A stretch of DNA of 63,723 nt, the filler included, from Nemertoderma westbladi (lineage: Eukaryota; Animalia; Xenacoelomorpha), in the NCBI GenBank assembly GCA_032718475.1. It is 4 parts of 4 records of this genome, joined end to end, with 100 filler letters (N's around TTAATTAATTAA, not from the genome) between each part and the next. Parts side by side here need not be neighbours in the genome. Positions count along the whole stretch, not along the records: positions 1 to 24,036 come from JAUCBJ010008005.1; 3 more parts are not named here. The stretch is one strand, 5' to 3'. Position 1 is the first letter of the stretch. Every line of letters starts with the position of its first letter. Shown here piece after piece: positions 1,023 through 53,372 of the stretch. The notes under the pieces were generated by a model. The model ran no database searches, was not told the origin of the DNA, and was given only the letters and a program-made list of their open reading frames with translations. The position numbers and the translations under genes were made by a program.

Positions 1023-2898
1023 TCACAGCTATGAAACATCATCAGTGAGTTGGGGCATCATCCAGAGAATATTCCTAGCCTTCAAACTTCATCCCAAAGT
1101 GAAGCAAACTCGAGTTATCGTCGTTCAAAGAATTAGTCAATCAGGCGCCGTATCTGATGACCACGGTATGGGGGTGACTTGGGACCTCAACGCGAGATTC
1201 AGAACACCATCCAAAACATATTCGCATAAAATCTTATCACTAATTGTCAAGGCCTAGGTAAGTTTTCAGCGTTTGAATATTTGAGCCAATCAGGTGCCAG
1301 ATACAGTGACCACGGTACGCGCGTGACCTGAGACCCCAATGGAAGGTTCAGAGTACTGGCCAAAACATTTTCGCATCAAATTGTACCGTAAAATGTTACT
1401 GCATATCAGCAAAGTCACCTACCGGTATTTGATCAGCAAAAGATCAGGTCTGACTGTGTGATTTGGGTCTGATCATATTTTCCTTTGCATGCATAAGAAG
1501 CCCTTCAATGGTCACTATCCGCTACATTGATCTAATCCATATCGTCAGATAGCCCGTGTTGCTGTTATAAGATTTATTTTGATTTGGTGCGATTTGGGTA
1601 ATTTTAGTTTTTTTGGGGTAAACTATGGTATTAATAACTTCCAGTAAAATCCCAACGTTAAGAACATTGCTAGAAACGTCAATCATCTATAGCCTACAAA
1701 CTAAGGGTAACTGTCAGCCAGTTACTGTACATGGGCAGATGGGTATACTAAGTACAGGAGTTGGAGTACCCGGTACTTGGATATTCCTGTATTGACAATA
1801 CTCAACTATATGAAGATAGGGTACGTTTTGACTAAAATACGGCATCTGATGTAACGTTTTGACTAGGCCTATCTGCCAAAAGAACCTCCACTATATATGA
1901 CCATACATGTAGGCCTACCATACCTGCACCGGTGCTCACTACAGACTGTGGAGATAGCTACCGGCAAGAGGTGTTTGGTATATAGTTTTAGTCAGTAATG
2001 GCATACAGCAACTACTGACTTTATGATTTCATCAAGTTCATCAAACCAGGCTGACGACTCAGCCGTTTAATTAATTGCAGCGGGATTGGATAATTTATTA
2101 ATTAATTTGGGGAACTTTACTAATTAGTAAAATCGTTAATTAGTTTGATTCAAAAGATTTTAGAGTAATTATCATTTGTAAAATAGTAAACCGCTTTGAT
2201 ACACCTTGTGAATAAGGATTTGGGGGCGGGGGGGACAAAGCCCCCCCGCCAATTAGGTAATTAAGTAATTAGTTAATTACTAATTAACGGTAGGAGATAC
2301 GGCATCGGCGCCAGAGACTTTTTTGTGTAGAATAAAATTCCAAACAACTTTGTGATGTTACGTTTTTTCATAGCTCTTAGTGTTTTCGAGTTACGACGCT
2401 AATTAGTTTTCGGCTAATTAGTACTAATTAACAGTAATAGGAGGGCCATAGCGATGACTGAACTTTTTTTAGATCTTACCGAGATGAACAAAAAAAAACA
2501 CCGTTGCTAGGGGAAAAACCAAATACTTTTCGAGAAAAATCAATTAGAAATCTTTAATCGCTAATTACTAATTAATTAATTAACAGATTTTTTCCATATG
2601 GAGTATTAATTTCAAAGCCAGCTGCCATTTTATTAGCCCCTGAGTTTTTGATTATTGATAGTAACAATGTGTTGGCAAGCTGTATTTTTCGAGGTGTTTG
2701 TTATTATACATTTATTATAGGAAGGGATCTAGGGGTCTTAACCTCGAATGATAAGTTTATTTTACCGAAAATAACTTATCTTTTATTGGCGCAATTGTAG
2801 GACTAATCCCATCACATGCGTACTTTTTAACCGGGTAGTGTACAAATTTAGGAATCGCGTAATTTTTCTTGAAATTAATACTCCATATCTCAAGAACC

Positions 2899-2960
2899 GG
2901 TGGCCTAGTGGTTGTAGTCTCGGCTTCCACCTCGAGGTCCCAGGTTCGAATCCGACACCA
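2899..2960 (+). ncRNA. tRNA-derived Pol III promoter cassette (SINE-like head, Gly-TCC-like loop); not a functional tRNA
   Basis: A box TGGCCTAGTGG (2901-2911), B box GGTTCGAATCC (2943-2953), anticodon-like arm CTCGG-CTTCCAC-C(T)CGAG; no proper acceptor stem. Confidence 0.75.
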
Positions 2961-2999
2961 CGCTGATGAGACCCAGTAAGGTCGAAACGCGTACGTGGT
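2957..2999 (+). ncRNA. Minimal type I hammerhead ribozyme
   Basis: Stem I ACCACG(2957-62)/CGTGGT(2994-99); core CTGATGA (2963-69); stem II GACC/GGTC with loop CAGTAA; GAAA (2984-87); minimal stem III inside palindrome ACGCGT; GUA triplet, predicted cut after A2993. Confidence 0.85.
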
Positions 3000-3589
3000 T
3001 TGGAGAGATATGAGATATTAATTTCAAGAAAAATTACGCGATTCCTAAATTTGTACACTACCCGGTTATAAAGTACGCATGTGATGGGATTAGTCCTACA
3101 ATTGCGCCAATAAAAGATAAGTTATTTTCGGTAAAATAAACTTATCATTCGAGGTTAAGACCCCTAGATCCCTTCCTATAATAAATGTATAATAACAAAC
3201 ACCTCGAAAAATACAGCTTGCCAACATATTATTTTTCAATAGTGTTACTGTGTTAAACAGGTTAACGTTATTTTTAATTTTGTTGTAAATGTTGTCAGAA
3301 TGCTGGAATGTTATGCAGGGCCGATCATTAAGTATGTCTATGCATGCTGTCAATTTTAATATGTTTCGTAATTTTAATATGCTTTGTATTCGTTTTACAG
3401 TAGACACTATTACTATAATTTGGCGTCCAATAAAAAACGTCAACTTCAACTTCACGCTGTGTCGTGTTGAAAATTTGTTGGCATTAATTATTACAGGACC
3501 AACAGGTGAGATTTTTTAAAAACTTTAAGAAACCCAGTTCATCAGTCTCCAACATGTCTAAACATTAAATGTCCTCCAATTTTTGTTGC

Positions 3590-4160
3590 TTTTAATCCGT
3601 TCAAGCTGAAACTTGGCAGATATGTACTAGACCATTAGCTGTGGCATTCAAAGGGGGCTAAACAGTCTATAGTTCTCTTGTCTTCCACTAGAGAGCGAAA
3701 TGCCTGAAAGTGAAATTATTGACACATTCCGTTATTTATGATCCATACAAGCTGAAAGTTGTCAGATATGTGCTAGAACACATCCTGTATCTTTGTGGTC
3801 TCTGTAATCGGTCAGTCTGAGTTTTCCAGTATGTCGCTACAACTCGCTAGAGCGCGAAATTTATGAATGTATTAACCTTCAAATTCCATTGATCTTAATC
3901 TGTTTAAAGCTGAATCTTGGCAAATATGTACCAGACCACATGGTTCGTCTGTGTGAAGAATTTGATCGGTTCTCAGTTCTCCAGTTTGCCTCTAGAGGTT
4001 GAAATGTCTGAAAGTGAAAACTTTCTCTCATTAGGTTATTTTTTATCCATTCAAGCTGATACTTGGCAGACATGCTAGACCGTAGACCATACATAGGTAG
4101 CATCTTTGTTGGGATGGTATTCTCTCGGCAGTTCTTCAGTCTACCGCTAGTAGGCTGAAA
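3590..4160 (+). repeat. Degenerate ~145-155-bp tandem repeat, same family as 62820-63540
   Basis: Recurring CAAGCTGAAACTTGGCAGATATG...C(A/G)CTAGAGNGCGAAAT...CTGAAAGTGA blocks. Confidence 0.65.
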
Positions 4161-4246: not shown

Positions 4247-4515
4247 GTCACACCTTGGTGTAGTGGTTGCATAGAATTCACATCACTAGTAGGTCGTGGG
4301 TACAATCCACGCATGGGCCAGGGCAGTTTTCGTTTCGGTACGAATACTTAAAAGGGACCAACCAGGGCGCATCTCTGCCTTGCATCCTTAAATGAGTACT
4401 GAAGTTTACTCTGAGGAGTATATTTTTGGGGGACCGCACTGGAAACACGTCGCGAGACTTTGTGCGTAATCCCTGGCCTAATAGTCGAAGAAAATGTAGG
4501 CCTGCTTTTTTACTT
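4247..4515 (+). mobile_element. Degenerate tRNA-derived SINE
   Basis: A box TGGTGTAGTGGTT, degenerate B box GGGTACAATCC, central GCCTTGCATCCT-TAAATGAGTAC similar to the SINE core at 10410-10460, T-rich end. Confidence 0.5.
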
Positions 4516-7689: not shown

Positions 7690-8382
7690 CAGGGTGGTCA
7701 AAAAAAGCTGTACCGATGTAAAGTGCTATAAAAACTTTAATTTTTATCAAAACACATCGAAATTTTGTAGTCGGACATTTCAATAGTTTTGAACACTAAA
7801 TATCAGTCCATAGAGCATTTCACCTAATGTCCGTCTGTCTGTTTGTCTGTCTGTCCGTTTCAATGTATCTTAAGAACGGCTGGACCGATTGCCAAAAATA
7901 TCATTGTTTATTTTCAGTTTCATCATATGTCCATAGGCCATATGACTCAGGGTTTAGACAGAACCCATACGAATAGCCGGTTTTCAACTGAAAACCAGCC
8001 CGATCCGAGGTACTGCCTCGCACATTTTCAACACCATCAATAATTGAGTTTTGATTGAACGAGTTTTGAAGTAAATTTCCACAGTCAAATGCTTTCTGGT
8101 AAGGAGGTGTCGGAGACATTGTGAAAAGGGACAACTGAACAGATCGGAAATCTAAAGCATGGAACAAATAACGCCTGTAGTCTCCTTCTTTTTTATCACT
8201 TGTGACCTCATGGTGATTCATACAAAAAATTTTGGTTCTTAAGATAACTTAAAGCGGACAAACAAACAATTTAGTGTTCAAAAATATTCAAATGTCCGAC
8301 TATAAAATTTCGATGTGTTTTGCTAAAAATTAAAGTTTTTATAGCACTTTACATGGGTACAGCTTTTTTTGACCACCCTCTG
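7690..8382. mobile_element. Tc1/mariner-type MITE, ~112-bp TIRs, TA TSD
   Basis: TA|CAGGGTGGTCAAAAAAAGCTGTACC... and ...GGTACAGCTTTTTTTGACCACCCTCTG|TA. Confidence 0.85.
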
Positions 8383-11567: not shown

Positions 11568-12824
11568 TTATATCAAACACAATCTAACAAATACAGTTGA
11601 ACGGGTCTTATATATATTGTGATATAAGTTATGTAGTTGGCTCGCGGTTATATCGCTTTCTTTTGCTTTGGGGTCCAATCGAAATACTTCATCACAGAAG
11701 ACATTTACCAATGTGGAGCCTGGAAACATCTTGGGTATTATTAACGAGATTTTTTTGCCGTAGGGGCTGCAGGTGAAGATCCATTCGAAACTGAAAGCGA
11801 ATATAATATCGTCCACACAGTTCGGAGGTGGAGGTGCCAGACCCCCTAAATGAGACTCTATATTCGCCGCTTCCATATCGTGAGATATGGGAAATATGAC
11901 ATCACTAACTGACACCCGGTCGCCGTAAAACGCAACGCAAGAGAAGGTAGGAGCTTTGTCTAAATTTCCAGCACCATACCAATCTAGTTCACCACCTGCG
12001 ATCAACGGATTCTGAAATCCAAACACTATATAAAGCAAATTACTTAAATCAGTTATATTTATGGTTGTTATTATTTCCTGGCTGGAGACGATAATAACAT
12101 ATTTGACATTATGAATTCGACCTAAAAGTCCCGCCTTCTGCAAAAACTCACCAACATTTCGAACTCCATCCCTGAAGTTCTTGAGGTCGCTGTTATATAT
12201 GTCGAACTGAATTATATTACCGTCGTAGTTTTTAGAGAATGAGAGGCAAGAAATTAAGTTTTGTTGTTTGGTTTGACCGCCAGCTGATGTTACCGGCATT
12301 ATATCACCATTCAACTTCACGGACGATGGAAAACATTTGCTGTAATCTCTTCGTAAACTATGAACGAGCTTCCATGATGAGGGAAGTAAAACCCCTGGAT
12401 TCAGACTATTAATGTTTAAAGATATAAAAGCAAATTTGGGCATCGTATATAAGTTATGGGCCCATTTCTGCAACTGTTTCTCAGTACGTGCCACTGCCAA
12501 TTCCTGTAATTCAGTACGTGCCACTTCCAATTCCTGTAATTTGAGGAGCGAAAAGTCAGCGGAAAATTCCAGCGCCTTCTGGTACACGATTCGTTCGCTC
12601 TCAGTCAGGGCTTGATTACCGCTAAGGAATAAATCCAATCGTCGTGGTCTCAATCTCAGGACATAATCTCCGGCTTTCGCCCATAACCTACACACAGGGC
12701 GAACATTACATATGTCTACAGCCGAAAGAAATTTAAATATGTGTTCTAGTAATTCAGGGAGTGAGAAAACTCTTTCAGACGCGCCTGGATGGCGAAATCG
12801 TTTTGATGGAGGCGGTGACGACAT
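11568..12824 (-). CDS. F-box protein with C-terminal FIST-like domain (divergent FBXO22-like), single exon
   Basis: ATG at 12824; F-box LPELLEHIFKFLSAVDICNVRPVCRLW; C-terminal VAFYGDRV...KMFPGSTLVNVF...STVFVRL resembles the FBXO22 FIST-C region. Confidence 0.8.
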   Translation of the reverse strand: MSSPPPSKRFRHPGASERVFSLPELLEHIFKFLSAVDICNVRPVCRLWAKAGDYVLRLRPRRLDLFLSGNQALTESERIVYQKALEFSADFSLLKLQELEVARTELQELAVARTEKQLQKWAHNLYTMPKFAFISLNINSLNPGVLLPSSWKLVHSLRRDYSKCFPSSVKLNGDIMPVTSAGGQTKQQNLISCLSFSKNYDGNIIQFDIYNSDLKNFRDGVRNVGEFLQKAGLLGRIHNVKYVIIVSSQEIITTINITDLSNLLYIVFGFQNPLIAGGELDWYGAGNLDKAPTFSCVAFYGDRVSVSDVIFPISHDMEAANIESHLGGLAPPPPNCVDDIIFAFSFEWIFTCSPYGKKISLIIPKMFPGSTLVNVFCDEVFRLDPKAKESDITASQLHNLYHNIYKTRSTVFVRLCLI

Positions 12825-14212
12825 CAGCACATCCACAGAGTACCGGTACTACAACAGTACTACACCAGACAACTTTACTGTACTATGGACAGACAGCATT
12901 TATGACAACAGTATTTATGAATCAGTCGATAAGACAGTCAGACAGTAGGGCTACCGGTGTCACAGGCGAAAATGTCCCCCCCCCCCCCCCCCCCCCCCGC
13001 CCAGGTTGCAGAGTATGGCAAGTGCACGCACCAGTGCACGCCTCAAAAATTTGTTGTGCACGCCTGAATGACCAGTACACGCCTTAAAAATTTGTTGTGC
13101 ACGCCTGAAAAATTTATTGGCCTACAAAAATGCACGCGTAAAATATTGTCTCGTCTGACTCTGACTGCAGACTGGACTGTAGAGCAAGAATGCCAGAATG
13201 CCCGATATAACTATAAGGCAGTATAAGGTGTCCATGCCTGTTGCTCTCCCACATGGACCTGCCCACATCCTTTGCCTGTACTGTATGCTCATTCAGTCAT
13301 TAAGTCATTACTGCATTATTACTGTATATTTTTTGCCAGTAGTTATTCTTATAAGCCAGTATGGCGATTGATTAGGCCTTAATTTCATCAATTCAAGTAC
13401 AAAAACCTCGAGCGTAGCGATAAGAAAATTTTTTGTACATAAACAGAAACACATCAGCAGACTGGCAGGCAGGAGCTGGGGAAATATCTTCTCTGTGCTG
13501 GGGGGTAAGAGCGCGTAAGAAAAGGGGGAAGAGGGGGAAAGAAAAGGGGTATGGATCTATAAATAGCATCCAATGGGACGCCTCTATTTTACGACCGTTC
13601 TATACTGTAAACATACAGCTGTCTACCTTATTGAGAAGTGGTAATACTACTTAGTTGCTAAACTTACCCCCCCCCCCCCCCCCTCCACCTATCATTACAC
13701 ACCTACTGTACTTAACCATACATACCCATTCCTATATACCTACTTACACGTACCCTCCCACCCACCTAAGCACGTCGACTTAACTGCACCCACCCACCGA
13801 CCTAAGCACAACTACTTAACTGTACCCACCCTCAAGCACGTCTACTTAACCGCACCCACTGTTAGCGCTACAATTCAATTTTGCAAATAATGAGCCTAAA
13901 CTTACGACCAGCTGTATATACAAGAAACGGGCGCTAGTAACCGTTACTTGTACTCGTAGAATAATTTATTGTTGCATATAAAACTGGCGTTACTATAAAC
14001 AGATTTGAAACCCCGTATAAATAGTTCCTTTAAGTTGTGTGTCTGGACTGCTTACGTCTTTATGTCTAACTGAAAACTGTATTCATTCGAGACTTATGGA
14101 AGTCGGATTTATGAAACTGACAATCCGAGATACCGATGTCACAGGAATTAATTTTGTGCACGTATTAAAATATGTTAGTTTGCTATTAATATTAGGCGTC
14201 ATATGACAATAC

Positions 14213-17965: not shown

Positions 17966-20256
17966 TTAATTTGGATTAATGTGTTCAAAGGAATACAGTG
18001 TTGGTTTTTTACGACCATAATCGCCTGATTCCTCGCGGGCTATTTCCAGCAAACAGAGCCGTCCAATTGGTCTATTCAGTGTTTGAGGTACGAATTCTAA
18101 TTTCTTCTTATCCTTCTCCCTTTGTTTCTTCTTTCTCATTACGATGAGGTCGACTGATCTCACAAGTCCGTCAGCGGATGTATGGACAACTGTGACACGT
18201 CCAGTTTGCCATCGCTTCCTCGGGATATCGTCGTCGACTATTAGTACTACGTCATCAATTCGAAGGTTTTCCTGACGACTAAACCATTTGGTGCGCAGTT
18301 GGAGAGATGGTAAGTAGTGTTTCTCGAAGTGTATGGCGAATCTATTGGAAAGTAATTGCATCATCCGCCATGTTTGACGTAAGTATATATGGGAATCTTC
18401 CGAATTAGAAACAGGTACCATAACGATGGGTTTCTTCATCAGGAAGTGGGCAGGTGTCAGCGACTCCAATGACTTCGGATCAGACGAAGCAGGCATCAAT
18501 GGACGGTCGTTAATGTAAGCTGCTATTTCTTCCAGAAAGGTGCGAAGTAACTCATCTGTTAGGTATGCCCCGCATGGTATCACGTGGTGGAACGCTATTT
18601 TAACACTTCGGATCATCCGCTCCCAGCTACCTCCCCACCATGGTGCGTCAGCTGCGTTGAACGTCCAAGTTGCCGCGTTTACACGCAAGTAAGCTACAAT
18701 ACCTAGTCCAACCTTGCTCGCATCACTGAAGACATGTAACTGGTACTCATAATTAGGTAGTACATGGCCAAAGTAGGCCCGTGGTACCTTAAAGTCCTCA
18801 ATTTCTGGCAAAGTCTCCTCCCAAGCTTGCCAACGGGCCAACAACTTACCAGTCAACGGGTCATCCCAGGAATTGTTTTCTTCCCACATATCCCGAACTA
18901 TACACCTAGCCGTCAAGATAACTGGGCCAATGAAACCAATGGGATCAAAATAGGTGCTTAATATGCTAAGGCATATTCTCTTAGTACGTTTACTCTCACT
19001 TCTCACCTGTAGTTTGAATGACATTTCATCAGTTTCGGCGTTCCATCTTAAACCTAATGTCTTTGTTTCCGGTAAATCATCACGTGTCAAATCCAGATTT
19101 TTCGCACCACGGTCTTCGAATGGTATTGAGTCCAGGAACTCTCTGGAGTTGCTAGCGAACTTCGTGAGCTTGAATCCTCCTCGTTTAAGACATTCTACTG
19201 TACCTTTCGCTATGCTTATCGCCTCCTCAACGGTTGGAACAGACTTCAAGTTGTCATCCATATATATATCTTTCTTGATATTTTCTAGGACGGCGGGCGA
19301 GAAATCATGTTGGTTATCGTCCGCCGTGGTATGAACAATGAAGCATGAGTTAGATGGGCTGGAATTAATGCCAAACGCTTGTACCGTCATCCAATATTCC
19401 TTCAGAGGTTTTCTAAAGTCTCCGTCTGGCCACCAAAAAAACCGGAGGCTATCTCTGTCTACTTGTAGGGCCTTCACTTGTAAAAACATGCCTTCAATAT
19501 CTGAGGCGAAGGCGATCGAGTATTGGCGAAGGCGAATCAAGATTCCTAGAAGGGATTGCAACATGTTGGGACCAGTCATTAATTCTGAATTCAGAGACTG
19601 TCCTTTATATAGAGCTGAAGCATCAAAGACCACTCTCACAGTATCTGGCTTGTCGGGACGTTCCACATAGTGATGAGTTATATAGTATGTCCGATTTGAT
19701 TCTGGTGTCCTTGTTGGCACTTCTTCAGCATACCCTTTTGTGATGAACTTCTCCATCTGTTCCCTATACATGTGCCATGCGTTATGGTTTGCAGCCAATC
19801 GTCGCTTTAATTGTTCCACTCTCTTCTCTGCTAGAATTCTGTTGTTATGGAACTTGGGATCCCGAGAGCGCCAAAGTAAACCTATTTCATACTTACCTTC
19901 ATTCTTTAAGAATTTTGTGGTAGTCCGTTGTATGTCACGGGATCGCTCATCTTCAACAGATAAGGCTTTCTCATAAGAAGTTGGTCCCTCCCTTTCTTGT
20001 TTCATTATACTTACGAGTTGTTGCTCAGCATTATATTCAGCCTGAGCTCGCAAGATTTCACTTAATTTGTCATGTTCATCGTTAACAAAATTTCCTTGCA
20101 AAGAATTATAATTCTGCATTTGATAATTAATATACTGTTCGTCATCAATTAACTCTGTATCAGTCTCATCATTCTCTAGGTCTATGTTTTGGTCATTGTC
20201 AGTCGATAAGACATTTTCAAGTGATGAGTCATAGCTAAGAACTTCGTTTACCTTTA
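17966..20256 (-). mobile_element. BEL/Pao LTR retrotransposon pol remnant (RT, partial RNase H, integrase C-half, DUF5641-like tail)
   Basis: VRVVFDASA, SLNSELMTGP, YMDDNL, LHVFSDASKVGLG, APWWGGSWERMIRSVK, RTKW...DDVVLI...WQTGRV...DGLVRSV; frame stays open upstream to the LINE tail at 20257. Confidence 0.9.
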
Positions 20257-20835
20257 TAATAATAATAATAATAATAATATATATTTATTTATATAGCGCC
20301 AAATTTACATAATATACGTACTCTAAGGCGCTGACAACACATAGTACACAGTAATTAATAGTTCGTGACTGCAATAGCAATAGTTATGAAATAAAAAAAA
20401 AAAATCAACTAAAATAATGTAGTAATTAAAAACCAACAATAAAAACATCATAAAATATAGTAAAAACAAACAATAAAAACGATCATCGTAAATATTGTAG
20501 CATATAGTAAAAAACAAACAATAAAAAAACGATCAACGCAAGCATTCCAGTGCGGGTTAAATTAAAATGTAATTAATGGCAGAATAGAATATAATGGCAG
20601 TGATAATGAATTAAAATTAATAGTAAAAACAAACAATAAAAACAACTGTTATGGTGGACTTTTTAAGATTTAAAATATATTGATGTTAAAAACAATCGTG
20701 TATACATCCAGTACTTAAGTTAAAATTAAATTTAAAATTGAAAGTAATTAATTAAAAAATGTCAGTCGTCCATAAAAACAAATAAATAATGTTTAGTTTA
20801 GATTTAACTTCATATGCACAGCGTAATATAAGACA

Positions 20836-23800
20836 CTAGTTCACGTGGTATTCCAGATTGTACAGGTGAGTTTTTAGACGTTTCTTAAAAATGCCCACAT
20901 TCGATGATTCGCGTATGGCCGGAGGCAATGCGTTCCATACAGTTGGAGCAGCAATGGAGAACGATCGCCTACCATAATGTTCCGTATTGTAGCGAGGGGC
21001 CACGAGTAAACCCAGCCCGCTGGATCGCATCTCGCGGATGGGTAGGTACGGAGTTAGTAAGTCGCTTAGATACTTCGGGGCACAGTTATTTACGCATTTC
21101 CAAGTTAGCAAGGCAATTTTAAAGTCTATACGGCGAACTATAGGTAACCAGTGCAATGCTTTTAGGGTTGGAGTTATATGGTCCCTCTTCTTTACACCAC
21201 ATAGAAGTCGAGCCGCGGAGTTTTGAACGTACTGTAGTTTCTGAATGGATTTTTTTGGCAGACCGTAGTAGAGAGAATTATTGGCGTCAAGCTTTGATGT
21301 TACAAGTGCGTGTATAAGTATTTCCATGTTTTGTTTGTTGACGTATCGCTTTATCTTTGAAAGATTCCTTAAATGGAAGAATGCCTCACGAACGGTGATT
21401 CCTATTTGCTTGCACATTGTAAGCCGAGAGTCTAATTCGAACCCGATATTGCGAACGTTTGGGCTGCACGATATTATGTCGCTCCCAATGGTCAGTACTG
21501 GGGGGTCCTGCTGGATGCCGAACCTGGACTGCAATAACAGGACTTTAGTTTTATCGGAATTCATTTTTAAGTAGTTTTTATCCATCCACTCCAGCACATC
21601 CACGAGGCAACTCTCAGTTACTTTTACAGCGCTGTTTAATTCAATTGGCTTGAAAATCAAATATAATTGGGTATCATCCGCGTAGAAATGACAATGTAGA
21701 CCATGCCGCTTTATTACAGCTGATAGTGAACGCGTGTATACCGTAAACAGAATCGGACCCAATACCGAACCCTGTGGTAGTCCATAGCGGAGGTGCTTTG
21801 CGATGGAATATGTATTCCCAATACGCACCTGTTGCGAGCGCTCCGATAGATATGATACGAACCATTTAAGGGCGACGCCATCAATGCCAATATCGTGTTT
21901 AAGTATCTGCAATAGTTTGCTATGTTCAACCGTGTCGAATGCCGCGCTTAAATCAAGTGTGATAAACAAACACACCGAACCATCGTCAATTCCACGAAGT
22001 ACCGTATCAGCAACAGATAACAAAGCAGTTTCCGTACCGTGTAATGGGCGGTAGGCACTCTGGTAGGGTTCATGCAGACCGTTCAGATTCATGTGGTGCT
22101 TTAACTGCTCTACCACCACCTTCTCAGTTAATTTGGAAATGTACAGTAAGTTCGAAACCGGTCTAAAGTGATTGAGTATTTCCGGGTCTAATCGCAATTT
22201 CTTTAGTATTGGTGTGAGAATTGCTTCTTTGAAACGCGAAGCCACAGTTCCAGTTCGTAAAGATAAGTTAATTATCAATGTAATGACCATCAATAGTGGT
22301 TTTAAGGACATCTTTAGTATGCTGGTTGGAATCGGGTCACGTGGACTTGATTTTGACTTCGAGTCGCTTATCAGTTTTTCAACGCCGTCGCTCGTTACGT
22401 CACAAAATTTGTGAAGGACCGGTGCTGGAGGCGTCCCGGACGGCGCGGGAGGCACCCTGGACGGTGCGGGAGGCGTCCCGGACGGCGCCCCGGATGGTGC
22501 AGGAGGTACCCTGGTCGGAGCGAGAGGCGCCCTGGATGACGTGGGAGGCGTCCCTGACGGTCCTTGAGGCGTCCCGGACGGCGCGGGAGGCGTACCAGAT
22601 GGCCTGGGAGGCGACCCGCATGGCGTGGGTGTAGGCACCCCGGATGGCGCGGGCAGCACCCCAGACGGCGAGGGAGGCGTCCCGGATGGCGTGGGAGGCA
22701 TCCCGGATGGCCTGGGAGGCGACCCGCATGGCGTGGGTGGAGGCACCCCGGACGGCGCGGGCAGCACCCCAGACGGCGAGGGAGGCGTCCCAGGTGGCGT
22801 GGGAGGCGTCCCGGATGGCGTCCCGGATGACGTCCCATTGTGGTTTAGACCATCTCGAATAGATTTAATCTTATTATCGAAGTAGTTTACAAATCTGTTA
22901 GCTAATTCCAATTCAGAATTATGTCTCGGTAATATAACCTTATTTCCTCTGTGTAAAACTTTATTGACGACTTTAAATAGTGTTTTTAGGTCCTCTGAAT
23001 TGTTCTTGATTATCCCGCTATAATATTGTTCCTTAGCCGTTGAGATGGCCGCCGCTACCTTGTAACATTGGTTTCTGTATTCCAAGAGGTCAACATGCAG
23101 TTTCGTTGTCCGATATTTGCGCTCCAATCGGCGTCTAGTTCTCTTCTCATTGGCTATTGACTCGGTATACCATGGTGCCATTGGACGCTCAATTACTGTC
23201 TTCGTTACCAATGGTGCATGTCTATCCAGTAGTGATAATAGTGTTTTGTCATAGAGTTCTACCAGTTGGTCAACGTCATGCGGTAGTGGGTTTAAACATA
23301 ATGCTGATGTTTCGATATCTGAAATCAAGTTGCCCATGTTTATACGGCTCAGTTTCCTGTGCGAAATAATCTTTTTTACCGCAATAGGTTTTGGTAGTGA
23401 TATATCAAAACATATTAAGTAGTGATCCGAGATACCGATGTCACACACCCGTATATCCTTAATTATATCGATATCGTCTTTGTGCATCAACACCAAATCT
23501 AAAGTGTGTCCTTTGCGGTGTGTTGCCTCATGTAATAATTGTTCCATGCCAAAACAGTTCACAACATCTAAGAAACTTGCAGATTCCTTATTTGTTGAAT
23601 CATCCACCCAGAAGTTAAAATCTCCCATAATAATTAATTTCCCCGTTGCCACCATAAGTTGTTGCAGTATATCACTAAATTCCTCAAGGAACATCGATGT
23701 ATTTAGTTTGTTTACTGTTGAGGGATAAGTACGGTACAGAATTAACAGGCGGAAGTAGGCACCAAGCTGCGTTAGTGTCAATTCAATATATTCGAAAGAT

Positions 23801-24036
23801 CGATATGTAGCTCGTACGATCTTGAATGGTTCCATATCCAAACTGCCCTTGTAAGCGCAGCCAACTCCACCACCTGATGTCCATGTTCTGGGTTCGTGTG
23901 CGAATTTAAATCCAGCAGGGCACGTTTCCTCCACGACAGAGTCATCCTCATCCTTGCCTGTCAGCCATGTCTCCGTAAGAGCAAGTATGTCAATATTCAA
24001 GTCGACTATATAATCCTTAATTATTGCAGCCTTATT
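20836..24036 (-). CDS. LINE ORF2: APE endonuclease + reverse transcriptase (5' partial)
   Basis: DILALTETWL, MGDFN, HRKGHTLDLV, ISDHY (APE); FRPVSNL, LDLSAAFDTV, GLPQGSVLGPILF, YADDTQLY (RT); open frame over 1050 codons up to the gap. Confidence 0.92.
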   Translation of the reverse strand, partial: NKAAIIKDYIVDLNIDILALTETWLTGKDEDDSVVEETCPAGFKFAHEPRTWTSGGGVGCAYKGSLDMEPFKIVRATYRSFEYIELTLTQLGAYFRLLILYRTYPSTVNKLNTSMFLEEFSDILQQLMVATGKLIIMGDFNFWVDDSTNKESASFLDVVNCFGMEQLLHEATHRKGHTLDLVLMHKDDIDIIKDIRVCDIGISDHYLICFDISLPKPIAVKKIISHRKLSRINMGNLISDIETSALCLNPLPHDVDQLVELYDKTLLSLLDRHAPLVTKTVIERPMAPWYTESIANEKRTRRRLERKYRTTKLHVDLLEYRNQCYKVAAAISTAKEQYYSGIIKNNSEDLKTLFKVVNKVLHRGNKVILPRHNSELELANRFVNYFDNKIKSIRDGLNHNGTSSGTPSGTPPTPPGTPPSPSGVLPAPSGVPPPTPCGSPPRPSGMPPTPSGTPPSPSGVLPAPSGVPTPTPCGSPPRPSGTPPAPSGTPQGPSGTPPTSSRAPLAPTRVPPAPSGAPSGTPPAPSRVPPAPSGTPPAPVLHKFCDVTSDGVEKLISDSKSKSSPRDPIPTSILKMSLKPLLMVITLIINLSLRTGTVASRFKEAILTPILKKLRLDPEILNHFRPVSNLLYISKLTEKVVVEQLKHHMNLNGLHEPYQSAYRPLHGTETALLSVADTVLRGIDDGSVCLFITLDLSAAFDTVEHSKLLQILKHDIGIDGVALKWFVSYLSERSQQVRIGNTYSIAKHLRYGLPQGSVLGPILFTVYTRSLSAVIKRHGLHCHFYADDTQLYLIFKPIELNSAVKVTESCLVDVLEWMDKNYLKMNSDKTKVLLLQSRFGIQQDPPVLTIGSDIISCSPNVRNIGFELDSRLTMCKQIGITVREAFFHLRNLSKIKRYVNKQNMEILIHALVTSKLDANNSLYYGLPKKSIQKLQYVQNSAARLLCGVKKRDHITPTLKALHWLPIVRRIDFKIALLTWKCVNNCAPKYLSDLLTPYLPIREMRSSGLGLLVAPRYNTEHYGRRSFSIAAPTVWNALPPAIRESSNVGIFKKRLKTHLYNLEYHVN
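22425..22835. repeat. GC-rich ~21-bp minisatellite in frame within LINE ORF2 (PPAPSGT-like repeats)
   Basis: Unit GACGGCGCGGGAGGCGTCCCG with variants; translated as a Pro/Ser/Gly-rich tract. Confidence 0.9.
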
Positions 24037-24136
24037 NNNNNNNNNNNNNNNNNNNNNNNNNNNNNNNNNNNNNNNNNNNNTTAATTAATTAANNNNNNNN
24101 NNNNNNNNNNNNNNNNNNNNNNNNNNNNNNNNNNNN
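24037..24136. other. Assembly gap/spacer
   Basis: N44-TTAATTAATTAA-N44. Confidence 0.98.
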
Positions 24137-25495
24137 CTTTATATGCCTGAGGGATTCTTTACCAACAAAATCAGTCGGTTTATTCGGCTTTATGAAGAAA
24201 TCTAAACCGGCCTGGTAGGGATTTTTATCTAAATTCATTTCCAGCCCCCAAACCCGGAAACCTTTCTCTAACCGCAACACGTTGATGGCGTACTGCCCGA
24301 AGTCGGCTATTCCGAACTCGCTTCCGGCCTCCAGTATCGCCGCGTACAAGGGCCCCATACTGCTCGGCGGCACGTACAACTCCCAACCCAACTCCCCGGT
24401 GAAGGACAGCCGCAGGGCTCGAACCCTGACCCCGGCCAGCGTCACATCCCGACAACTCAGGAACTTAAACCCGGAGTTGGAGAGATCCTCCTCGGGGGGC
24501 GCCAACTTCCGGAGGACGTCCCGAGCGAACGGCCCCGCAACGGACAAACACTGCAGACTCTCGGTCGCGTTGTCTATAACGAGTCCGTCGCTAAGCGACC
24601 AGCGACGCGCGTGCTCCTCGATCCAGCGACGATCGTGGTTCTCCGACCCGGAACCGGTGATCAGGAAGAACCGGTCCTCGGCCAGTCGGGTCACCGTGAC
24701 CTCGGCGTAGACCCGGCCTCGGGGGGTCAGCATGTGGCAGATGTTAGCCGTGCCGACCTTGGGCAACGAGTTGGCGACCAACCGATCGAGAACCTCCGCT
24801 GAAGTCGGCCCGCTGATCTCCAACTTAGCGAACGGCGTTAAATCGGTAACGCCGACGCGTTCTAGAACCGTCCGGACTTCCCGACCCACCGGACCGTGCC
24901 AGTTGCACCGCCGGTAGCCCGGCGCGTACCCCGCGGTATCCCCCGGCAACGCGAACCAACTGGGCTGCTCCCACCCCGCGTGGAAGCCGAACTCGGCTCC
25001 TCTCGCCTTCGTGGCCTCGTAGACCCCGGAGACCCTGCGGGTAGGCCGACCCGCCCATCGCTCCTCCTTGGGCCAACCCACCGCGTTGTTCATCCCGTAG
25101 GACTCCCTCGCCTTCGCCGACGTGTACTCCCTATCGGTCCACTTCCCGTAGCGGTCCGGGTCCAACTCCAACAGATCGTACGGCGGCTCTCCGTTGAGTA
25201 TCCACTCCGCGAGGTACTTTCCGGCGCCCCCGCTGTGCACGATCCCGTAGGCGAACCCCACCGCGCACCAGTAGTTAGTGGCCCCCTGCACGGGCCCCAG
25301 CATGCTCAGCACGTCCGGCGTGTAGGTTATCGGGCCGCAGACAACCCGCTGTATGTCCGCGGACCGCAGCAACGGGACCAGGTTCATCGCCGCCTCCAGG
25401 TTCACCATAATCCTCTCGATATCCGATTCGTATAATTCCTTACCGAACCCCGGGGGGACGCCGTCCACCCAGCTGTCCTGAACTACCATCGCCTC
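24137..25495 (-). CDS. DMGDH: Dimethylglycine dehydrogenase, exon 2 (3' truncated by gap)
   Basis: Acceptor ttgtag|GAG GCG ATG; [72 protein letters not shown]. Confidence 0.93.
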
Positions 25496-26055
25496 CTACA
25501 ATAGATAATAGTAAATAATTATATAAAATAAATAATTAAAATGAAATATAAAGACTATAATAGGAATTATTATTAATAGCGGGGATTACAAAGTAAATAA
25601 TCTTATTGAATATCAACACTATGGACCGGTCGTAACCGGAAGTACAATATCGTCATAATGACGTGCAGTATTGCTTGTGTTGTATCGTGTCTCGGCTGTG
25701 TCATTCGTATGGTCTGGCTGAGTCTGGAATGGCTTTGTATTACAATGCATTTAGGCTCAACAAAAGTCGTAAATTCCTCAATATATGTTTCGTTGTATAT
25801 CGGCTAATGAATCATTATTATTAAAGAGAAGTGAACTAAAACTCACTTTGATGATTATAATTACTGTTTCAATATTCTTCAAAATTATATATTCAATTAT
25901 TTCAGTTCAGGAAAACTGACAGTTTCAGTTTGCAACACTAATAATAAATGTTCTGAAACAAATTCAGTTATAATTTGTAAAAAGTGATTTAACTAAAAAT
26001 TTATTATATTTAGTGTTCAATAAATTTGTATTGTTTTGTAACATAACGTGTGTAG

Positions 26056-26442
26056 TATGGCATACAAAAAAAAAATGTTTCTCAATGTATTTATTTTCTC
26101 AATGTTTTTTTTTCTCGATGTATTTAATTTCTCAATGTTTTTTTTCTCGATGTATTTAATTTCTCAATGTTTTTTTTCTCAATATCTGATTGGTCAAACC
26201 GTGTATTTATTTTCGCAATGTTTATTTTCTCTATATCTGATTGGCCAGCCTTGCCTTTTTTTGCTCAATATCTGATTGGCCTAGCCTACCGGTTCAATAG
26301 GCAGAGATTGCAGAAGAACCTATTGTACTGCTGTAGAGGCAGAAGCTGGAGGTGCGACCAATCAGATATTGAGAAAAAATCATTGAGAAAATAAATACAC
26401 TGAGAAAAAAACATTGAATATTAATACTAAATGTATGCCATA
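26056..26442. mobile_element. MITE in the DMGDH intron, TIR TATGGCATACA, 6-bp TSD GTGTAG
   Basis: GTGTAG|TATGGCATACA...TGTATGCCATA|GTGTAG; internal inverted subterminal repeats TTTCTCAATATCTGATTGG / CCAATCAGATATTGAGAAA. Confidence 0.75.
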
Positions 26443-26477
26443 GTGTAGTGTAGTGAGTATTAATTGAACGAACTAAC

Positions 26478-27410
26478 CTTACTCTCGTAGGGTCCAACCA
26501 GCAGACCATCGCGTTCCTTCCGTAAATAGTAGGAACCCTCCAAATCTCGGATCACAGGGAACTCCTTACCCAACTGCTTGATCTCCGGGATCGTCGATGT
26601 AATAACGTACTGATGGTGTATCGGAACCAACGGATGCTCCAACCCCGCCAGCCGTCCCACCTCCTGGCCCCAGAACCCAGCCGCGTTCACCACGCCCCTA
26701 GCGGAGCGCACCGAACCGCAGTCGGTCTCCACGTCCCAGGAACCGTCGACGCGCTCGTTCAACCCGGTCACTGCGACCGGAGCCGCGATCCGAGCTCCGT
26801 ACATCCGGGCCCCGGCGGCGAACGCCATCGTCAGCGAATACGGGTCGATATGGCCGTCCGATGGGGTGTACAACCCGCCCAGAATGCCCTCCATGTTCAT
26901 AAACGGGCACATTTTATGGACCTCGTCTGTTGTAATTAAACGCTGCGGGGTCTTCTGCCAACCAACTCGCGACATCTGGTATTTGGCTTCGTCTACGCGA
27001 GTCTCCGTGTTGAGAATGCGAATACTTCCAGGGTCGTGGAACCCGACTGCCTGCCCCGTCTCCTGTTCTAGAGTTCGAAACAAGTTGATACTGTAGTAGT
27101 GTAAGTTCTTTACGTTTATCCCGGGGTGGAAGTACGTTGTGAGTCCCGCTGCGTGCCAGGTTGATCCGGCTGTCAGCTCAGATCGCTCCACTAGCACCAC
27201 GTCTTTGAGGCCCTGTTTGGCTAGATGGTAGGCTATGCTAGCCCCTACCGCCCCGCCCCCTATGACTACGATTTCGGCAGACTCCGGGAGGTTTGGATGT
27301 CTGGTCTTGTGGTTCCATCGTCTAGGTATCAGTCCATTCCGACCACGAGCAGTTTCACTCCGACACGGATTCAGAGAAGATCTGAACGCTGACAATAACG
27401 CAGAACTCAT
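26478..27410 (-). CDS. DMGDH: Dimethylglycine dehydrogenase, exon 1 (transit-peptide-like N-terminus + FAD-binding domain)
   Basis: ATG 27410; [38 protein letters not shown]; donor AAG|gttagt joins in frame to exon 2 ([14 protein letters not shown]). Confidence 0.93.
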
Positions 27411-27605
27411 TGCATTTCCTGAGCAATCGGTCAAACTAAACTACAATACAGCAATAACTACCTCATATAATAAAGTAAACTACGTAGAACTACCGGCAGA
27501 CCGGTACAAAATAATTGGACTGTACCGGGGATCCGCTATTCTGTTATAACAACAGCTTGTCAGCTGGTAAACAGCATCCCGGAAGTAGGCCTTATCAATT
27601 TTGAT

Positions 27606-35580: not shown

Positions 35581-36792
35581 CTAAATAAATTCCACACCTT
35601 CGTATTTAATATTTCCGGCTATTTTAGTCTCAGTAACTAGAACGTTCCCGTCCACGTTAAATACCGTTATATATGTCGAAACATCGCCCGAGTTCTCCTC
35701 CGACTTCAAGGCGACGACGAGTTGTTCCTGCGAGTTCGGAACGAACTTAAACGAGGAGAAACCGCGGAAGAGGTTGAGCGGAGTGACTTCGGCCACATTG
35801 AGTCGGGTGAACGATTCGTCGGCGGTTATCATTATGTTACCGGCGCGTCGCTCGTCGTCCATCTCGTTGTATCGGAATCGCGACACTCTGCGGGGAAGAA
35901 AGATCCACCGGTCCCGCGGGGCCGACCAGCATACGGCCTCGTGGATGATGTATCCGGGGGCCGCGATCCCGGCGGCCGAGCGTAGCGAGTCGTAACGCGT
36001 CGACCAGTCCATGTGGACCACCTGCCCGGTCACCGAGATTGCCTTTACCCACTGCGGGTCGCGATTTAACGGCTCCCCTTCCGGGCTCGTCCATTCCTTA
36101 CCCAACCCGCCCACGTACAGAACACGATCCTTTACGGTCATCCACTCCGCTTTGAACCCCTTACTAACAGTCCCGTCACCGTCTGCGAGAATAACCCAAG
36201 GATAAACGCGATTCCCGACTACCTTATAAACAATTCCAGTTCGATCGTCCACCGTTAATAATTCCCCGTTAAACACGACGAGTTCCGATAACTCCATCCC
36301 TCGCCCGCCTAACGAATACTTCGACTCCAACCGCAACGGCTCTCGATCCCAGACAACCGCGACTGTCTTCAGATCATAGGAAACCTGCAGATCACCTTTC
36401 AGTAAATAACTAACCCATAAATTTGGTGCATCTTTTACTTTGGAATTCTGATCAAGGTCGGAAACTATCGCAATTCTGTAGGTATAGCCAAAAGAGTTCC
36501 GCAACGGTAAGGATAAAGGGTAGGTGTAGTTGTAATTCAATACCGGTGTAGAGATTGTGTTACTAGGAGAACTCGTAGATGGAATTAATATAAGTATGAG
36601 ACATATAAAAGAGAAAACGAATAATATAAATACAATTCTCGAATGTTTCGTTAGCAGACGAGTGATCCTTGTTGACATATCCGACCTGTGGTGTATCCCC
36701 AGAGGGGCACGCACTTTCGCATTCCAGTCTCGCATTTTGTCGTCAGCCAAATTGAAATTTTTATCGGAACACAACAAAGACGTATCTGTCAT
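35581..36792 (-). CDS. CANT1: Soluble calcium-activated nucleotidase 1 (apyrase), single exon
   Basis: N-terminal TM anchor, YNYTYPLS, IAIVSDLD, GRGMELSELVVFNG, VDDRTG, KGFKAEW, GYIIHEA, ALKSEE, C-terminal KYEGVEFI. Confidence 0.95.
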   Translation of the reverse strand: MTDTSLLCSDKNFNLADDKMRDWNAKVRAPLGIHHRSDMSTRITRLLTKHSRIVFILFVFSFICLILILIPSTSSPSNTISTPVLNYNYTYPLSLPLRNSFGYTYRIAIVSDLDQNSKVKDAPNLWVSYLLKGDLQVSYDLKTVAVVWDREPLRLESKYSLGGRGMELSELVVFNGELLTVDDRTGIVYKVVGNRVYPWVILADGDGTVSKGFKAEWMTVKDRVLYVGGLGKEWTSPEGEPLNRDPQWVKAISVTGQVVHMDWSTRYDSLRSAAGIAAPGYIIHEAVCWSAPRDRWIFLPRRVSRFRYNEMDDERRAGNIMITADESFTRLNVAEVTPLNLFRGFSSFKFVPNSQEQLVVALKSEENSGDVSTYITVFNVDGNVLVTETKIAGNIKYEGVEFI

Positions 36793-37077
36793 TATGGTTG
36801 CTGGGCTGGTAAACCCTCTCGGTCAAACTTTACACAAGCGAACTGATAGACTTGCAGTCTTTGTCAGTTCAGCAGTTAGTTGTGGTAAAAAAGAACAAAC
36901 TCAACATTTTCACACTTCTGCACTTATGTAACTGGTTCTGGTCTGGTAGTGGTAGGCCTACTACAGTACCGGTACTACAGTATACAGTATAAGCATAAGG
37001 GTACCGGTACATGATGGTAGGGTACGTTACGTACTAAAAGGTAGAACGATCTATAACGGGCTATAACGATCTATAAC

Positions 37078-44664: not shown

Positions 44665-44764
44665 NNNNNNNNNNNNNNNNNNNNNNNNNNNNNNNNNNNN
44701 NNNNNNNNTTAATTAATTAANNNNNNNNNNNNNNNNNNNNNNNNNNNNNNNNNNNNNNNNNNNN
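44665..44764. other. Assembly gap/spacer
   Basis: N44-TTAATTAATTAA-N44. Confidence 0.98.
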
Positions 44765-45613: not shown

Positions 45614-46588
45614 AAATAATTTGCAATATTCCTCGTCAGACGCTATCCCCTCATAACTAATTATTAAATTATAACAAATTATAATATAAGCCAATTTATA
45701 ATGCAAATGTCAGATATTTTTATGATTTATGTTTTGCAGACTTATTACACTGTAACTGTATCGACTGAACAAAAGTCGATGAAGGAACTGAACTGAAAGA
45801 ACTGACGAACTGAAAGTACCGACTGTACAATATACAATATATACATAAAAAAAAACACTGTTTGTAGGAAATGTATCTTCTCCTACAATTATAAACGAAA
45901 TAACGCGAAGTTTTGCAGAAAGCATGTCTAATAGATTTTCCCTATGGGGTGTCGAGTCGACAGAATTTTGATGGAGTGAATTCTACGCTTATGAGCGGTT
46001 ATTCTAGAATTAATTTAACTGTTGCTAGGCAACCAACAGGTCCCTCGCAACCAAAACCTTGCATACACAACTAGATCCGATAATGAACCTATCATCAAAG
46101 TTTCATCCAATTCCATCAACATTAAGTGCAAGAAGTTGTGTGTACAAACAAACAAACAAACAAACATAAACGTGTGAGAAATAAGGACACCCAACTTGGA
46201 ACCGTTCAATGAGAGAAGGATTTCACTTTCAGACATTTCGACCTTTGCGGCAAACTGTATCGATGTGAATGTGTATGGAATATCGTCAGAAGAAGCCAGT
46301 TTTCTAGTAGGCCTACCCTACATCCTGTACGTGGTACAGGTATATACCAATATTCAGCTTGTGTACCGGTACGTCCAATGCGTCCTTTAATAGGATTAAA
46401 GGACTATTTTAAAAACAATAAATAATAATAAAGAAAACTTCAGTTCCTTATACGCCGTATACATTATAGAATTGTTTATTTATAATTACCACATTCCGTA
46501 TTATCCTTATCCATTTTAATTAGGCCTACCGCCCGGTAAAACAAACTCTATCGTGCGACTGTTCGCTGTTGTATGTTCTTATAACGAA

Positions 46589-47731
46589 ATGAAAATTAGC
46601 TTATTAAAGCGGATCCGGATACTCTATATATTTACTTCGCTTATATTAATAATTTTATTAATTTCATGGCTGACCACATTCCAATGGTGGGAAAAGTTGA
46701 GTAACACCGTATTGGCACCGGTACCCGAGCAGCAGCGTCACACTTCAACAGAGATATACTTCTTAAAGGTTCATAAATGCGGTAGTGAGACAGTGAGTAC
46801 CGTGCTGACATGGTTCGCACTACGCAATCATCTGTCCATCGGAGTTCCCAGGGCTCCAGAAACCCGAATGGGTTGGCCATTCAGTTTCGTTCCGCGGCAC
46901 ATGATGAAACTAGCGGATGGTGTCGACCCAAACAGCAACCCGGTCGATGTCATTTACGTTCACACTGTTTACAACGCGACAACCGTTGACACAGTAATGA
47001 CACCAGGATACAAGAAAGTCGCAATAATCAGAGAACCCAGCAGCCACATAGAATCCTATATGGACCATTTATGCGAATACGTTTCCACATGTCTAGCCAT
47101 CAAAAAACGAGGTGGCGACCCTTTGGATGAGTACCTCGTTAATCCAGACGGATTCTATATAATGGGAAATAAACTATTTCCTCTAAGAAACCCTATTATG
47201 TTCGATTTTGGGTTCCAATTTGCGAAAGAGGCTGATATTTCTTTAATGTATGAAGCTTTACTCTCGATAAACCGAGATTTTGATTTAGTGATGATAATGG
47301 ATCGATTCGACGAATCAATGATTCTATTAAAGAGGTTGATGGGTTGGACTGTAAACGACATCATTTATATGCACATAAATAACCGAAATAAAACGAATTC
47401 CCGGACATTGACTGCTAACCAAACCGATCAACTAAAAACTATAAATAAGGCAGATTTCATGCTTTATGATTTTTTTCGTGATAATTTCAACGGTCTAATA
47501 AAAGCCTATGGGGTGGATAATATGGAGGCGGATGTGGCGGAGTTTCGTAAACTTAGGGAACAAGTTGTTGGTGGTTGTACTCCAAGAGGTTTGGAGGATG
47601 AGTTTAATCGCAATGACCTTAGTGATAGATGTAAAGTACTTCAACAATGGAATCCCACATTAATTCGGTTTATACAACAAGGGAAGTACAATAATTCGGG
47701 TAGGGCCCATGTATTGAAAGCGAATCATTGA
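46589..47731 (+). CDS. Galactose-3-O-sulfotransferase family protein (type II Golgi membrane), single exon
   Basis: ATG 46589; TM ILYIFTSLILIILLISWL; FLKVHKCGSETV (5' PAPS loop), IIREP, DFDLVMIMDRFDESMILLKRLMGW, NKADFMLYDFF. Confidence 0.88.
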   Translation: MKISLLKRIRILYIFTSLILIILLISWLTTFQWWEKLSNTVLAPVPEQQRHTSTEIYFLKVHKCGSETVSTVLTWFALRNHLSIGVPRAPETRMGWPFSFVPRHMMKLADGVDPNSNPVDVIYVHTVYNATTVDTVMTPGYKKVAIIREPSSHIESYMDHLCEYVSTCLAIKKRGGDPLDEYLVNPDGFYIMGNKLFPLRNPIMFDFGFQFAKEADISLMYEALLSINRDFDLVMIMDRFDESMILLKRLMGWTVNDIIYMHINNRNKTNSRTLTANQTDQLKTINKADFMLYDFFRDNFNGLIKAYGVDNMEADVAEFRKLREQVVGGCTPRGLEDEFNRNDLSDRCKVLQQWNPTLIRFIQQGKYNNSGRAHVLKANH

Positions 47732-50253: not shown

Positions 50254-51772
50254 AGGACGATAAACTGGAATTAAATTCTAGTACGGAGGAGTTGTTTGAA
50301 GAATTTTATGATTTGTTTTTAATTGGAAAATAAATAAAATGTCAAAATATTTATAACAATCGTTTCCATGTAAATTCCTTCCTATCCCATATCAATATGT
50401 TCCATACATGACATCAAAAATCTGTATTTTTACATTTTCAAATAAATTTTTTGATATAAAATAACGATTTTCAGTTCACCATATACAACAGTTTTGTGTA
50501 TCACATTGTTATTAACAGGAAAAAAATATTGGAAGCCCCACTTTTCACGGAAAAGTTTCCCACAAATAGAAACTTTATGTTGTCACTGGATTAAAAATGT
50601 CTTATCCGTGACATAATTTTTATTTTTTTTTCTCCCTAGAAAACTTTGCACTTCGATCTGATATCTCTTGCCGAACACCTCAATACCAGCATTAAACGAC
50701 TGTTACTTCAAATTTTTAAGAATATGGACATAAAGTACGAAAAAAATGTTTATAAATTTCCCATATGTGACAAAAAATTTTTCTCAATTTTTGCATTCCG
50801 GAACGTTTCTCTCAATAACGGCCAAGACATTTTTGGGACACTTTCTGGTTTCATATGCAGAAATTGTCGCTGTTTCTAACCATCAATATGGCAAATTCTC
50901 AAAGTTCATTTCAAAATTTAAAAATCAGGTACGGGACATTGGTCAATATGGTTGGCATTGACCCATATGTAATAAAATTTATGAAATTCCACCAAAAATA
51001 TTTTACTTTACTTTTTTCGACGGGAAAAAAAGTAAAATCAATGCAATCCTATGGGTTACTTTTTTTCCCTACGGAAAAAAGGTGAAACTTTTCTCCCGAT
51101 TTTGGGGTAGGCCTATATTCGAGCGAAAAAGTAACAATTTAATGATAAAATATTTATAATGTTTTCCTTATTTGGCAGTGTTTTTGTTATTACGTTTTAA
51201 TTCGGGCGGTGTGATAATTTTGGTTTTATTTAAGTTTTGGATGAATTTTCAAATTTGCCATAAATAAAGTGGATTCCACTTTATACACGAAAATTTAATT
51301 TTTCTTTTAAAATTCGGAATCAGCCATAACATTTGAAATTAGCATCCGCATAAAAAGAATAACCGCGGGAAAAAAAACTGTGGGTGACCCCCCCCCCCCC
51401 CCCCCCCCCCCAAGATTATTACTGTATATTATTGTTATACTGTAGTTTAATACTTTATAATATACTCAGTAAGTTAAAATGATTAATAACAGATGTGTGC
51501 TACATACCGTTCTACTTCTATTACCGATTAATAACAAAAGCACCAAAATATTAGTATCTCAAAGGAACATTATTATAAACTTATTATTATATTATATTGC
51601 ATTACATACAGTATGTAGCCCTAACTATATATTAATACGTCATATAACGCAATTTATACTCTAAACAAGTGCGATAAATATATATAAATTATTATTATTT
51701 TATCTACTTATTTTGCTACATGTTTGGAATTCTATAAAAATTTGCGGAGGTTCGGTTCTTTTTACAAAAGTA

Positions 51773-52678: not shown

Positions 52679-53372
52679 TATGTGGATAGAATTATTATTG
52701 AGCCAAATTACATACTTTATGAACCATAACTACTACAAATTATATAAGTTAGCGATTAATTTTAATGATTGTGTAGTGATATGACATCAAATCAAAATAC
52801 AAAAAATGAGATTAATTTATTTCTAAAATGACGCAATAAAGAGATATGTCTAATAAAATGAATAATCCTTCAATTTTAATTTTATTTATATTATTATTAT
52901 TATATTATTATATATTTTAGTTTGTGATAGAATTATAAATTTAATTTAATTATAGTAGAATTTATAATATACGTAAAAGAAACAACAACGTTCACAAATG
53001 CAAATAGATTTTTAAGCACATGACAGTTAATTTCATAAAAGCACCATAACAATGATAAAAACCTTGTACAAATAAACCGAATCTTGTATGTAGCCTCCCT
53101 ATATACATCGAAAGCGACTGGAAAATATTTTTGTAACAAATAAAACCATAAACCATAGCGGATTGTTCAGCGTTTCTTTTATAAAAAAGCACATTAACAC
53201 ACAAATACTATATGTAGTGTAAAAAGGCTATGTTATATAAAAGTTAGTAAAACTAAAAGCTATAAAATTCACATAAATACTCTCATGCACTTAGGTGATG
53301 TTCAGATATTTGTGAAGTGAAGTGATTGGCTGTTTAAATTAACATGTTTGGCCTCTTCTGACGTTGCAGGAG

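Follow-up and report, generated by a model that had tools for sequence, protein, structure and literature searches.

The locus analysed here raises the question of whether a long inverted repeat that carries a tRNA-like promoter and a hammerhead ribozyme in its loop represents a foldback family in its own right or a particular insertion of a repeat that is organized differently elsewhere. The window (the whole 63,723-nt stretch of Nemertoderma westbladi DNA) was examined for inverted repeats, and the repeat in question was located at 2663-2891 and 3005-3233 (229 nt, 97% identity) with a 113-nt spacer. Within a strict core of the arms (2670-2880 against 3016-3226), 210 out of 211 positions are identical and the single mismatch lies at 2827. 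The near-identical arms of the original prediction are thus upheld by the core but their boundaries are not, as the left side of the element extends to 2596, beyond the previously noted 2670, and the innermost 23 bp are a native stem of the repeat unit.

The spacer contains a tRNA-like head (2894-2953, plus strand) directly 5′ of a type I hammerhead on the same strand (2951-3004). The head carries what are taken here, by their familiar consensus, to be an A box (2901-2911) and a B box (2943-2953). The boxes lie 31 nt apart and are the sole such pair in the window, and none was obtained in 200 block-shuffled windows. ARAGORN called no tRNA at the head and Rfam returned no match on 2888-2968; the head has no intact T stem or acceptor stem and is not a whole tRNA, only the promoter part being kept. 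The hammerhead is composed of a core (2963-2969), stem II (2970-2973/2980-2983), a GAAA motif (2984-2987), and a stem I of 6 bp, a bulged C, and 5 bp more (2951-2962/2994-3004), with a predicted cut after A2993. It is the only motif in the window with both stems and has no counterpart in 200 shuffles. The two boxes and the complete hammerhead core that had been predicted for the spacer were accordingly found, and the predicted overlap between stem I and the tRNA-like part was observed as well, since stem I starts within the B box. Two core-like motifs at 4411 (plus strand) and 36746 (minus strand) were rejected as hammerheads because they lack stem II. The stretch around the first of these (4255-4500) is a separate SINE-like sequence with a weak A/B-box head.

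Stem III consists of one A-U pair and a palindromic CGCG, and two copies are predicted to pair via stem III (-42.7 vs. 2 x -17.2 kcal/mol), in agreement with the described fusion of a tRNA-like head and a dimer-type hammerhead. With a Pol III start at 2894, a position presumed from the customary tRNA numbering, the 5′ product would span 2894-2993 and measure 100 nt, matching the predicted product of ~100 nt. The motif has the canonical type I features defined in the available text of PMC4209133 (helix I of 6 bp, helix II of 4 bp, and a short palindromic helix III), although it remains below the Rfam gathering score. The Rfam check that had been proposed returned Hammerhead_HH9 with 26.6 bits (an E-value of 1e-4 for a 301-bp query and of 0.022 for the whole window) vs. 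a gathering score of 52, and no match reached the gathering level. A further Rfam match, to MIR828, was discarded because it merely reflects the hairpin. The pattern of a B box followed by a hammerhead core had no match in viral contigs and one match in metagenome contigs (L001, 1436-1565), which was rejected as a relative: a bacterial-looking tRNA is followed there by a terminator hairpin without stem II.

The structure of the family was read from the contigs of four out of nine public runs (X1, X2, X4, and X5) that match 2000-3004 (4378 contigs in X1 and 1617 in X4). The summed depth over the arm and the spacer is 10^5 to 10^6, a value that was not taken as copy number, and individual long contigs have a depth of 10-50. 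The family is an abundant, high-copy, and young repeat, and a Pfam search detected no protein domain in its unit, consistent with the earlier claim of a non-autonomous mobile element. A 441-nt contig in X2 (record 14) carries the same 30 nt at both ends and closes to a 411-nt ring that runs from 2869 to 3004, through the reverse complement of 2616-2891, and back to 2869, with one letter different from the locus over 2869-3004. The ring joint recurs in one X1 contig, and a loose end with the same tandem junction is present in one X4 contig. The circular contig is a single one, from a run of uncertain kind (guessed to be RNA, also containing flank DNA, with no run recorded as RNA), and a ring in an assembly graph is compatible with either tandem DNA or circular RNA. 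Based on the 411-nt ring and the tandem joints, the native unit has one arm: the family unit is a tandem or circular succession of head, hammerhead, and body. Arm and spacer are contiguous in records 14 and 27. The arm-to-spacer depth is about 1.2 in X1 and about 1.7 in X4 and X5 (bin means), a ratio that does not separate the models.

In a modelled monomer (GC 0.40), 2869-2891 pairs with 3005-3027 with a probability of 0.8-1.0 outside a 4-nt shift region; the resulting 23-bp stem lengthens stem I and the head becomes a side branch. The predicted fold has an energy of -99.5 kcal/mol (z = -3.7, 0/100 shuffles as good), whereas the 113-nt spacer by itself folds no better than shuffles (z = -1.4). 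T runs are unevenly distributed in the unit, one in the sense strand vs. seven, which is a weak signal (the asymmetry has P = 0.03 and the low count P = 0.55).

A comparison of the locus with this unit resolves the inverted repeat into two truncated copies. The left one is an inverted 5′-truncated copy on the minus strand (2596-2868) that comprises the body (2670-2868), a linker at 2616-2669 that the right arm lacks, and, at 2596-2615, the initial 20 nt of the pre-head stem of the following unit, the latter being identical to the reverse complement of 2869-2888 (20/20). It exceeds the right arm by 74 nt of family sequence. Since 2596-2615 match the pre-head stem and since contigs with loose ends at 2596 run on into the tRNA head (13 contigs in X1 and four in X4), the left arm corresponds to part of a unit on the minus strand and continues into the next unit. 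The right copy lies on the plus strand and continues from the hammerhead through the post-ribozyme strand of the 23-bp stem (3005-3027, assigned by the fold model) into a non-coding body (3028-3226) with the sole sense T4 of the unit at 3125-3128; a 139-codon frame that overlaps this body has no Pfam match. The pre-head strand of the stem (2869-2891, plus strand, assigned by record 14 and the modelled pairing) and the post-ribozyme strand differ at three positions in a three-way comparison. By this comparison, 2869-2891/3005-3027 is a stem native to each unit and lies outside the duplication, and the true inversion junction is placed within the 12 bp (2869-2880) that the pre-head stem shares with the post-ribozyme stem in reverse complement, an interval in which contigs of both native readings terminate.

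The termini of the element are asymmetric (2596 vs. 3226) and no target-site duplication was found at its ends, the longest shared word being a 6-mer. On the right, a ragged end (3227-3244, plus strand) loosely resembles the next 19 nt of the family, which end at terminus 2651 in left-arm coordinates (13 matches, a score that 1% of random 18-mers and 4.7% of AT-rich ones reach); the likeness could represent a decayed end or a target picked by similarity. The left side of the element is adjoined by a second high-copy repeat (2050-2595) that is AT-rich with short palindromes. Contigs of this repeat run past ~2593 into sequence that differs from this locus, and in one X4 contig the repeat is joined to another retrozyme copy (2592>2872).

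The frequency of the inversion junction within the family was assessed over 2845-2898, where eight out of 148 contigs in X1 and eight out of 29 in X4 were listed. The longest eight of the 148 X1 pieces all end at 2891 with three to six other letters according to the table of pieces, although a summary line counts some of them as whole, and none of the five X5 contigs (0/5) bridges 2869-2880, all of them being native readings. Overall, no contig among those listed in X1, X4, and X5 bridges the junction. The depth on the left (74326.1) and on the right (120715) of the junction in X4 adds up to the peak (195041.2) and leaves nothing for bridging contigs, while in X1 8-19k of 267k left-side depth are unaccounted for, which gives room for a few percent of junctions. 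Because contigs drop rare variants, these results indicate that the junction is rare and not that it is absent.

Head-to-head joints, in which arm and spacer are connected on the same strand at other positions, are present in other copies of the family. Four were identified among the 15 listed out of 61 rows (2678>2918, 2732>2953, 2763>2951, and 2807>2943) and a further one (2799>2907) was read from its intervening letters; three additional rows without a stated strand were left out of the count. The short sides of these joints measure 23-38 nt, each of them weak alone, and 2763>2951 holds a small hairpin. The anatomy of the locus and the other joints among the rows shown share the features of Penelope-type insertions, that is, inverted, 5′-truncated, head-to-head copies with variable breakpoints.

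Sm-alpha and Penelope, both named in the original prediction, resemble this family, the former by its layout and the latter by its insertion pattern. In Sm-alpha of Schistosoma, a hammerhead follows a tRNA-derived Pol III promoter and the repeats comprise two or more units, and single copies of Sm-alpha or Sj-alpha cannot propagate (available text of PMC6765202 and PMC2770079). The present family has the same order of promoter motif and hammerhead in tandem units, a likeness of layout, but differs in its host animal, its palindromic one-pair stem III, the 23-bp stem that clamps head and ribozyme, and its head-to-head insertions. Metazoan non-LTR retrozymes combine a type I hammerhead with a 150-450-bp tandem unit, no protein, and a GC content of 40% (PMC7229834, as far as its text is available); they were proposed to be non-autonomous derivatives of Penelope-like elements (PLEs; bioRxiv 10.64898/2026.07.22.740005) and animal retrozymes have been called SINE-like (PMC7761336). 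The hammerhead type, the 411-nt tandem unit (of the family and not of this copy), the GC content, and the lack of a protein agree with this group, and stem III has the form found in axolotl HHR_Amex1, whose monomer shows poor cleavage (PMC7229834). An active retrozyme copy contains two or more ribozymes in tandem (bioRxiv 10.64898/2026.07.22.740005), whereas the window contains one hammerhead, a difference confined to this copy. The tRNA-like internal promoter and the inverted insertions seen here go unmentioned for retrozymes in the available text of PMC7229834 and bioRxiv 10.64898/2026.07.22.740005. Furthermore, retrozymes show expression in the form of both linear and circular RNA, whereas this family is known from contigs and predicted cleavage.

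Insertions of PLEs often carry an inverted 5′-truncated copy at their 5′ end, and their two fixed 3′ ends, 30-40 bp apart, form a tail (PMC8557442). Most PLE inversions are head-to-head with palindromes at the junction, some lack a target-site duplication, and self-priming was proposed for their origin (PMC3846280); opposite-strand hammerhead pairs arise from truncated PLEs (PMC4209133). In purified form, a PLE protein nicks and extends the two strands and initiates at two sites within the RNA; a dimeric state is predicted for it (PMC11167929). As represented in these partly available sources, endonuclease-positive PLE insertions share with this locus the 5′-truncated inverted head-to-head copy, the palindrome or overlap at the junction, the AT-rich flanks, the occasional absence of a target-site duplication, and a hammerhead in the terminal repeat. 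The locus differs in the lack of an ORF, A and B boxes in place of a Pol II promoter, canonical 6-bp and 4-bp helices vs. the minimal PLE motif, and an end offset of at least 55 nt vs. 30-40. A literature search, mostly of freely readable main texts, returned no tRNA-headed retrozyme with head-to-head insertions, and the family may already be catalogued in Repbase or Dfam. The locus represents a known kind of element, a tRNA-headed retrozyme in a Penelope-type inverted insertion with its breakpoint in the unit's own stem, and not a new foldback class.

The explanation that is judged probable, with good but incomplete confidence, is that two truncated copies of the 411-bp repeat were fused head-to-head, likely by the enzyme of a Penelope-like element acting on non-LTR retrozyme RNA. 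It is based on the one-arm tandem or circular unit, the position of the junction, its rarity, and the other head-to-head joints, and is favored by a common family terminus at 2651, where the flanks are unlike each other (in 24 X4 contigs and four X5 contigs). The locus is a tRNA-headed non-LTR retrozyme, likely mobilised by a Penelope-like element, and the present copy probably represents an inverted insertion that is a dead end; the prediction is that it cannot release a monomer, having one ribozyme only. In the proposed mechanism, Pol III would initiate in one unit and read through into the next, two hammerheads would pair via their CGCG loops and cut to free a 411-nt monomer, and the monomer may then be ligated into a circle. 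Both target strands would prime cDNA on the retrozyme RNA: one cDNA would pass the ribozyme and the head and reach the pre-head stem, the second would halt within the post-ribozyme stem, and annealing of the two complementary ends at the native stem would give a head-to-head copy. The template would be circular or an uncut multimer, since the forward half contains an uncut ribozyme site and reaches 13 nt or more upstream of the position where Pol III is predicted to start. Snap-back of a single cDNA is disfavored by the 74 nt that the right arm lacks, unless the right arm was trimmed later.

Several observations count against this explanation. An autonomous partner was not seen: no PLE ORF was recognised within the window and its reverse transcriptases resemble LINE and BEL/Pao. 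The 2596 end lies 55 nt past the common end at 2651 vs. 30-40 bp for PLE tails, and one common end was seen. The conserved T4 at 3125-3128 could halt Pol III before the full unit, and the locus has no target-site duplication. PLE insertion in vitro did not require ribozyme cleavage (PMC11167929, available text).

The alternative that survives best, although it is unlikely, retains the same tandem family but has it moved by a LINE or spread as a satellite, with the inversion arising later through DNA repair or replication template switching at the native 12-23-bp inverted repeat. The exact position of the junction in a pre-existing inverted repeat, the absence of a target-site duplication, the ragged right end, and the LINE reverse transcriptases in the window are all compatible with it. 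However, several other head-to-head joints lie away from the native stem, the flanks are unmirrored, and the left arm was not copied from the right one because it is longer by family sequence.

It is improbable that the locus belongs to a separate foldback subfamily whose loop holds the promoter-ribozyme cassette as a fixed part and which moves as a unit or yields a self-opening hairpin RNA. In favor of this reading, the arms are nearly identical, the whole locus folds into one long hairpin (-421 kcal/mol), and the X1 depth would allow such junctions at the level given above, rare variants being dropped from contigs. Against this stand the lack of a bridging contig among those listed in three runs, the asymmetric ends without target-site duplication, and G2899, which is private to this copy and almost absent from the family (family letter T). 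Neither symmetric fixed termini with a target-site duplication nor a two-arm form across many copies (X1 leaves a few percent) was found. The cassette-in-loop foldback of the original prediction was abandoned as an architecture of the family, as the unit is one-armed and the junction is absent from the five X5 contigs and, by depth, from X4. Marginally less probable again is an assembly or library chimera of two repeat copies, which a high-copy repeat in a gapped scaffold and a junction without support in the listed contigs would suggest; a fold-back artefact would mirror the flank, which is unmirrored, the two arms are unequal in length and have a mismatch at 2827, and natural head-to-head joints are present in the runs. 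The insertion of a free tRNA-hammerhead SINE at the centre of a MITE, which the original prediction had held as its alternative, is very improbable even with MITE-like long inverted repeats in the window, because one and the same unit holds arm and spacer in continuity (records 14 and 27), no target-site duplication surrounds the spacer, and the left arm continues into a second head.

The 'new foldback element' reading is thereby removed, leaving a repeat of the Sm-alpha type that is young and very abundant and whose copies bear the marks of Penelope insertion. Under the preferred explanation of a retrozyme copied by a Penelope-like enzyme, the locus bears on which enzyme moves animal retrozymes, hitherto argued from co-occurrence and sequence kinship, and on how Penelope inversions arise, for which the family offers a ready data set of junctions. 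It yields the specific prediction of a circular or uncut template. A more far-reaching reading is tentatively put forward as a possibility, namely that the family parasitizes Penelope-like elements as a SINE equivalent driven by Pol III and that the locus is a fossil of twin-primed circular-RNA copying, in which the 23-bp stem doubled as the cDNA annealing site and, as modelled, would clamp promoter and ribozyme into one RNA domain. If this were true, twin-priming with stem-annealing would account for the formation of Penelope inversions and such foldbacks would be a recurrent source of family-silencing hairpin RNA.

Other features were recorded along the window. Four other long inverted repeats have no hammerhead inside, and MITE-like long inverted repeats without a hammerhead include 51771-52680 and 7691-8379. 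Pfam matches indicate an F-box protein (11568-12848), a BEL/Pao-type fragment (17966-20284), a LINE endonuclease and reverse transcriptase (20836-24036), FAD oxidoreductase and aminomethyltransferase domains (24137-27440), an apyrase (35581-36822), a galactose-3-O-sulfotransferase (46520-47731), and a reverse transcriptase fragment (58572-59180), close to which lies a GC-rich, imperfectly repeated block (59729-60627). The gap spacers at 24037-24136, 44665-44764, and 57117-57216 are identical and consist of 44 N, a 12-bp AT palindrome, and 44 N. A dispersed family of diverged repeats of ~150 bp occupies 3573-4079, 46208-46257, and 62832-63508.
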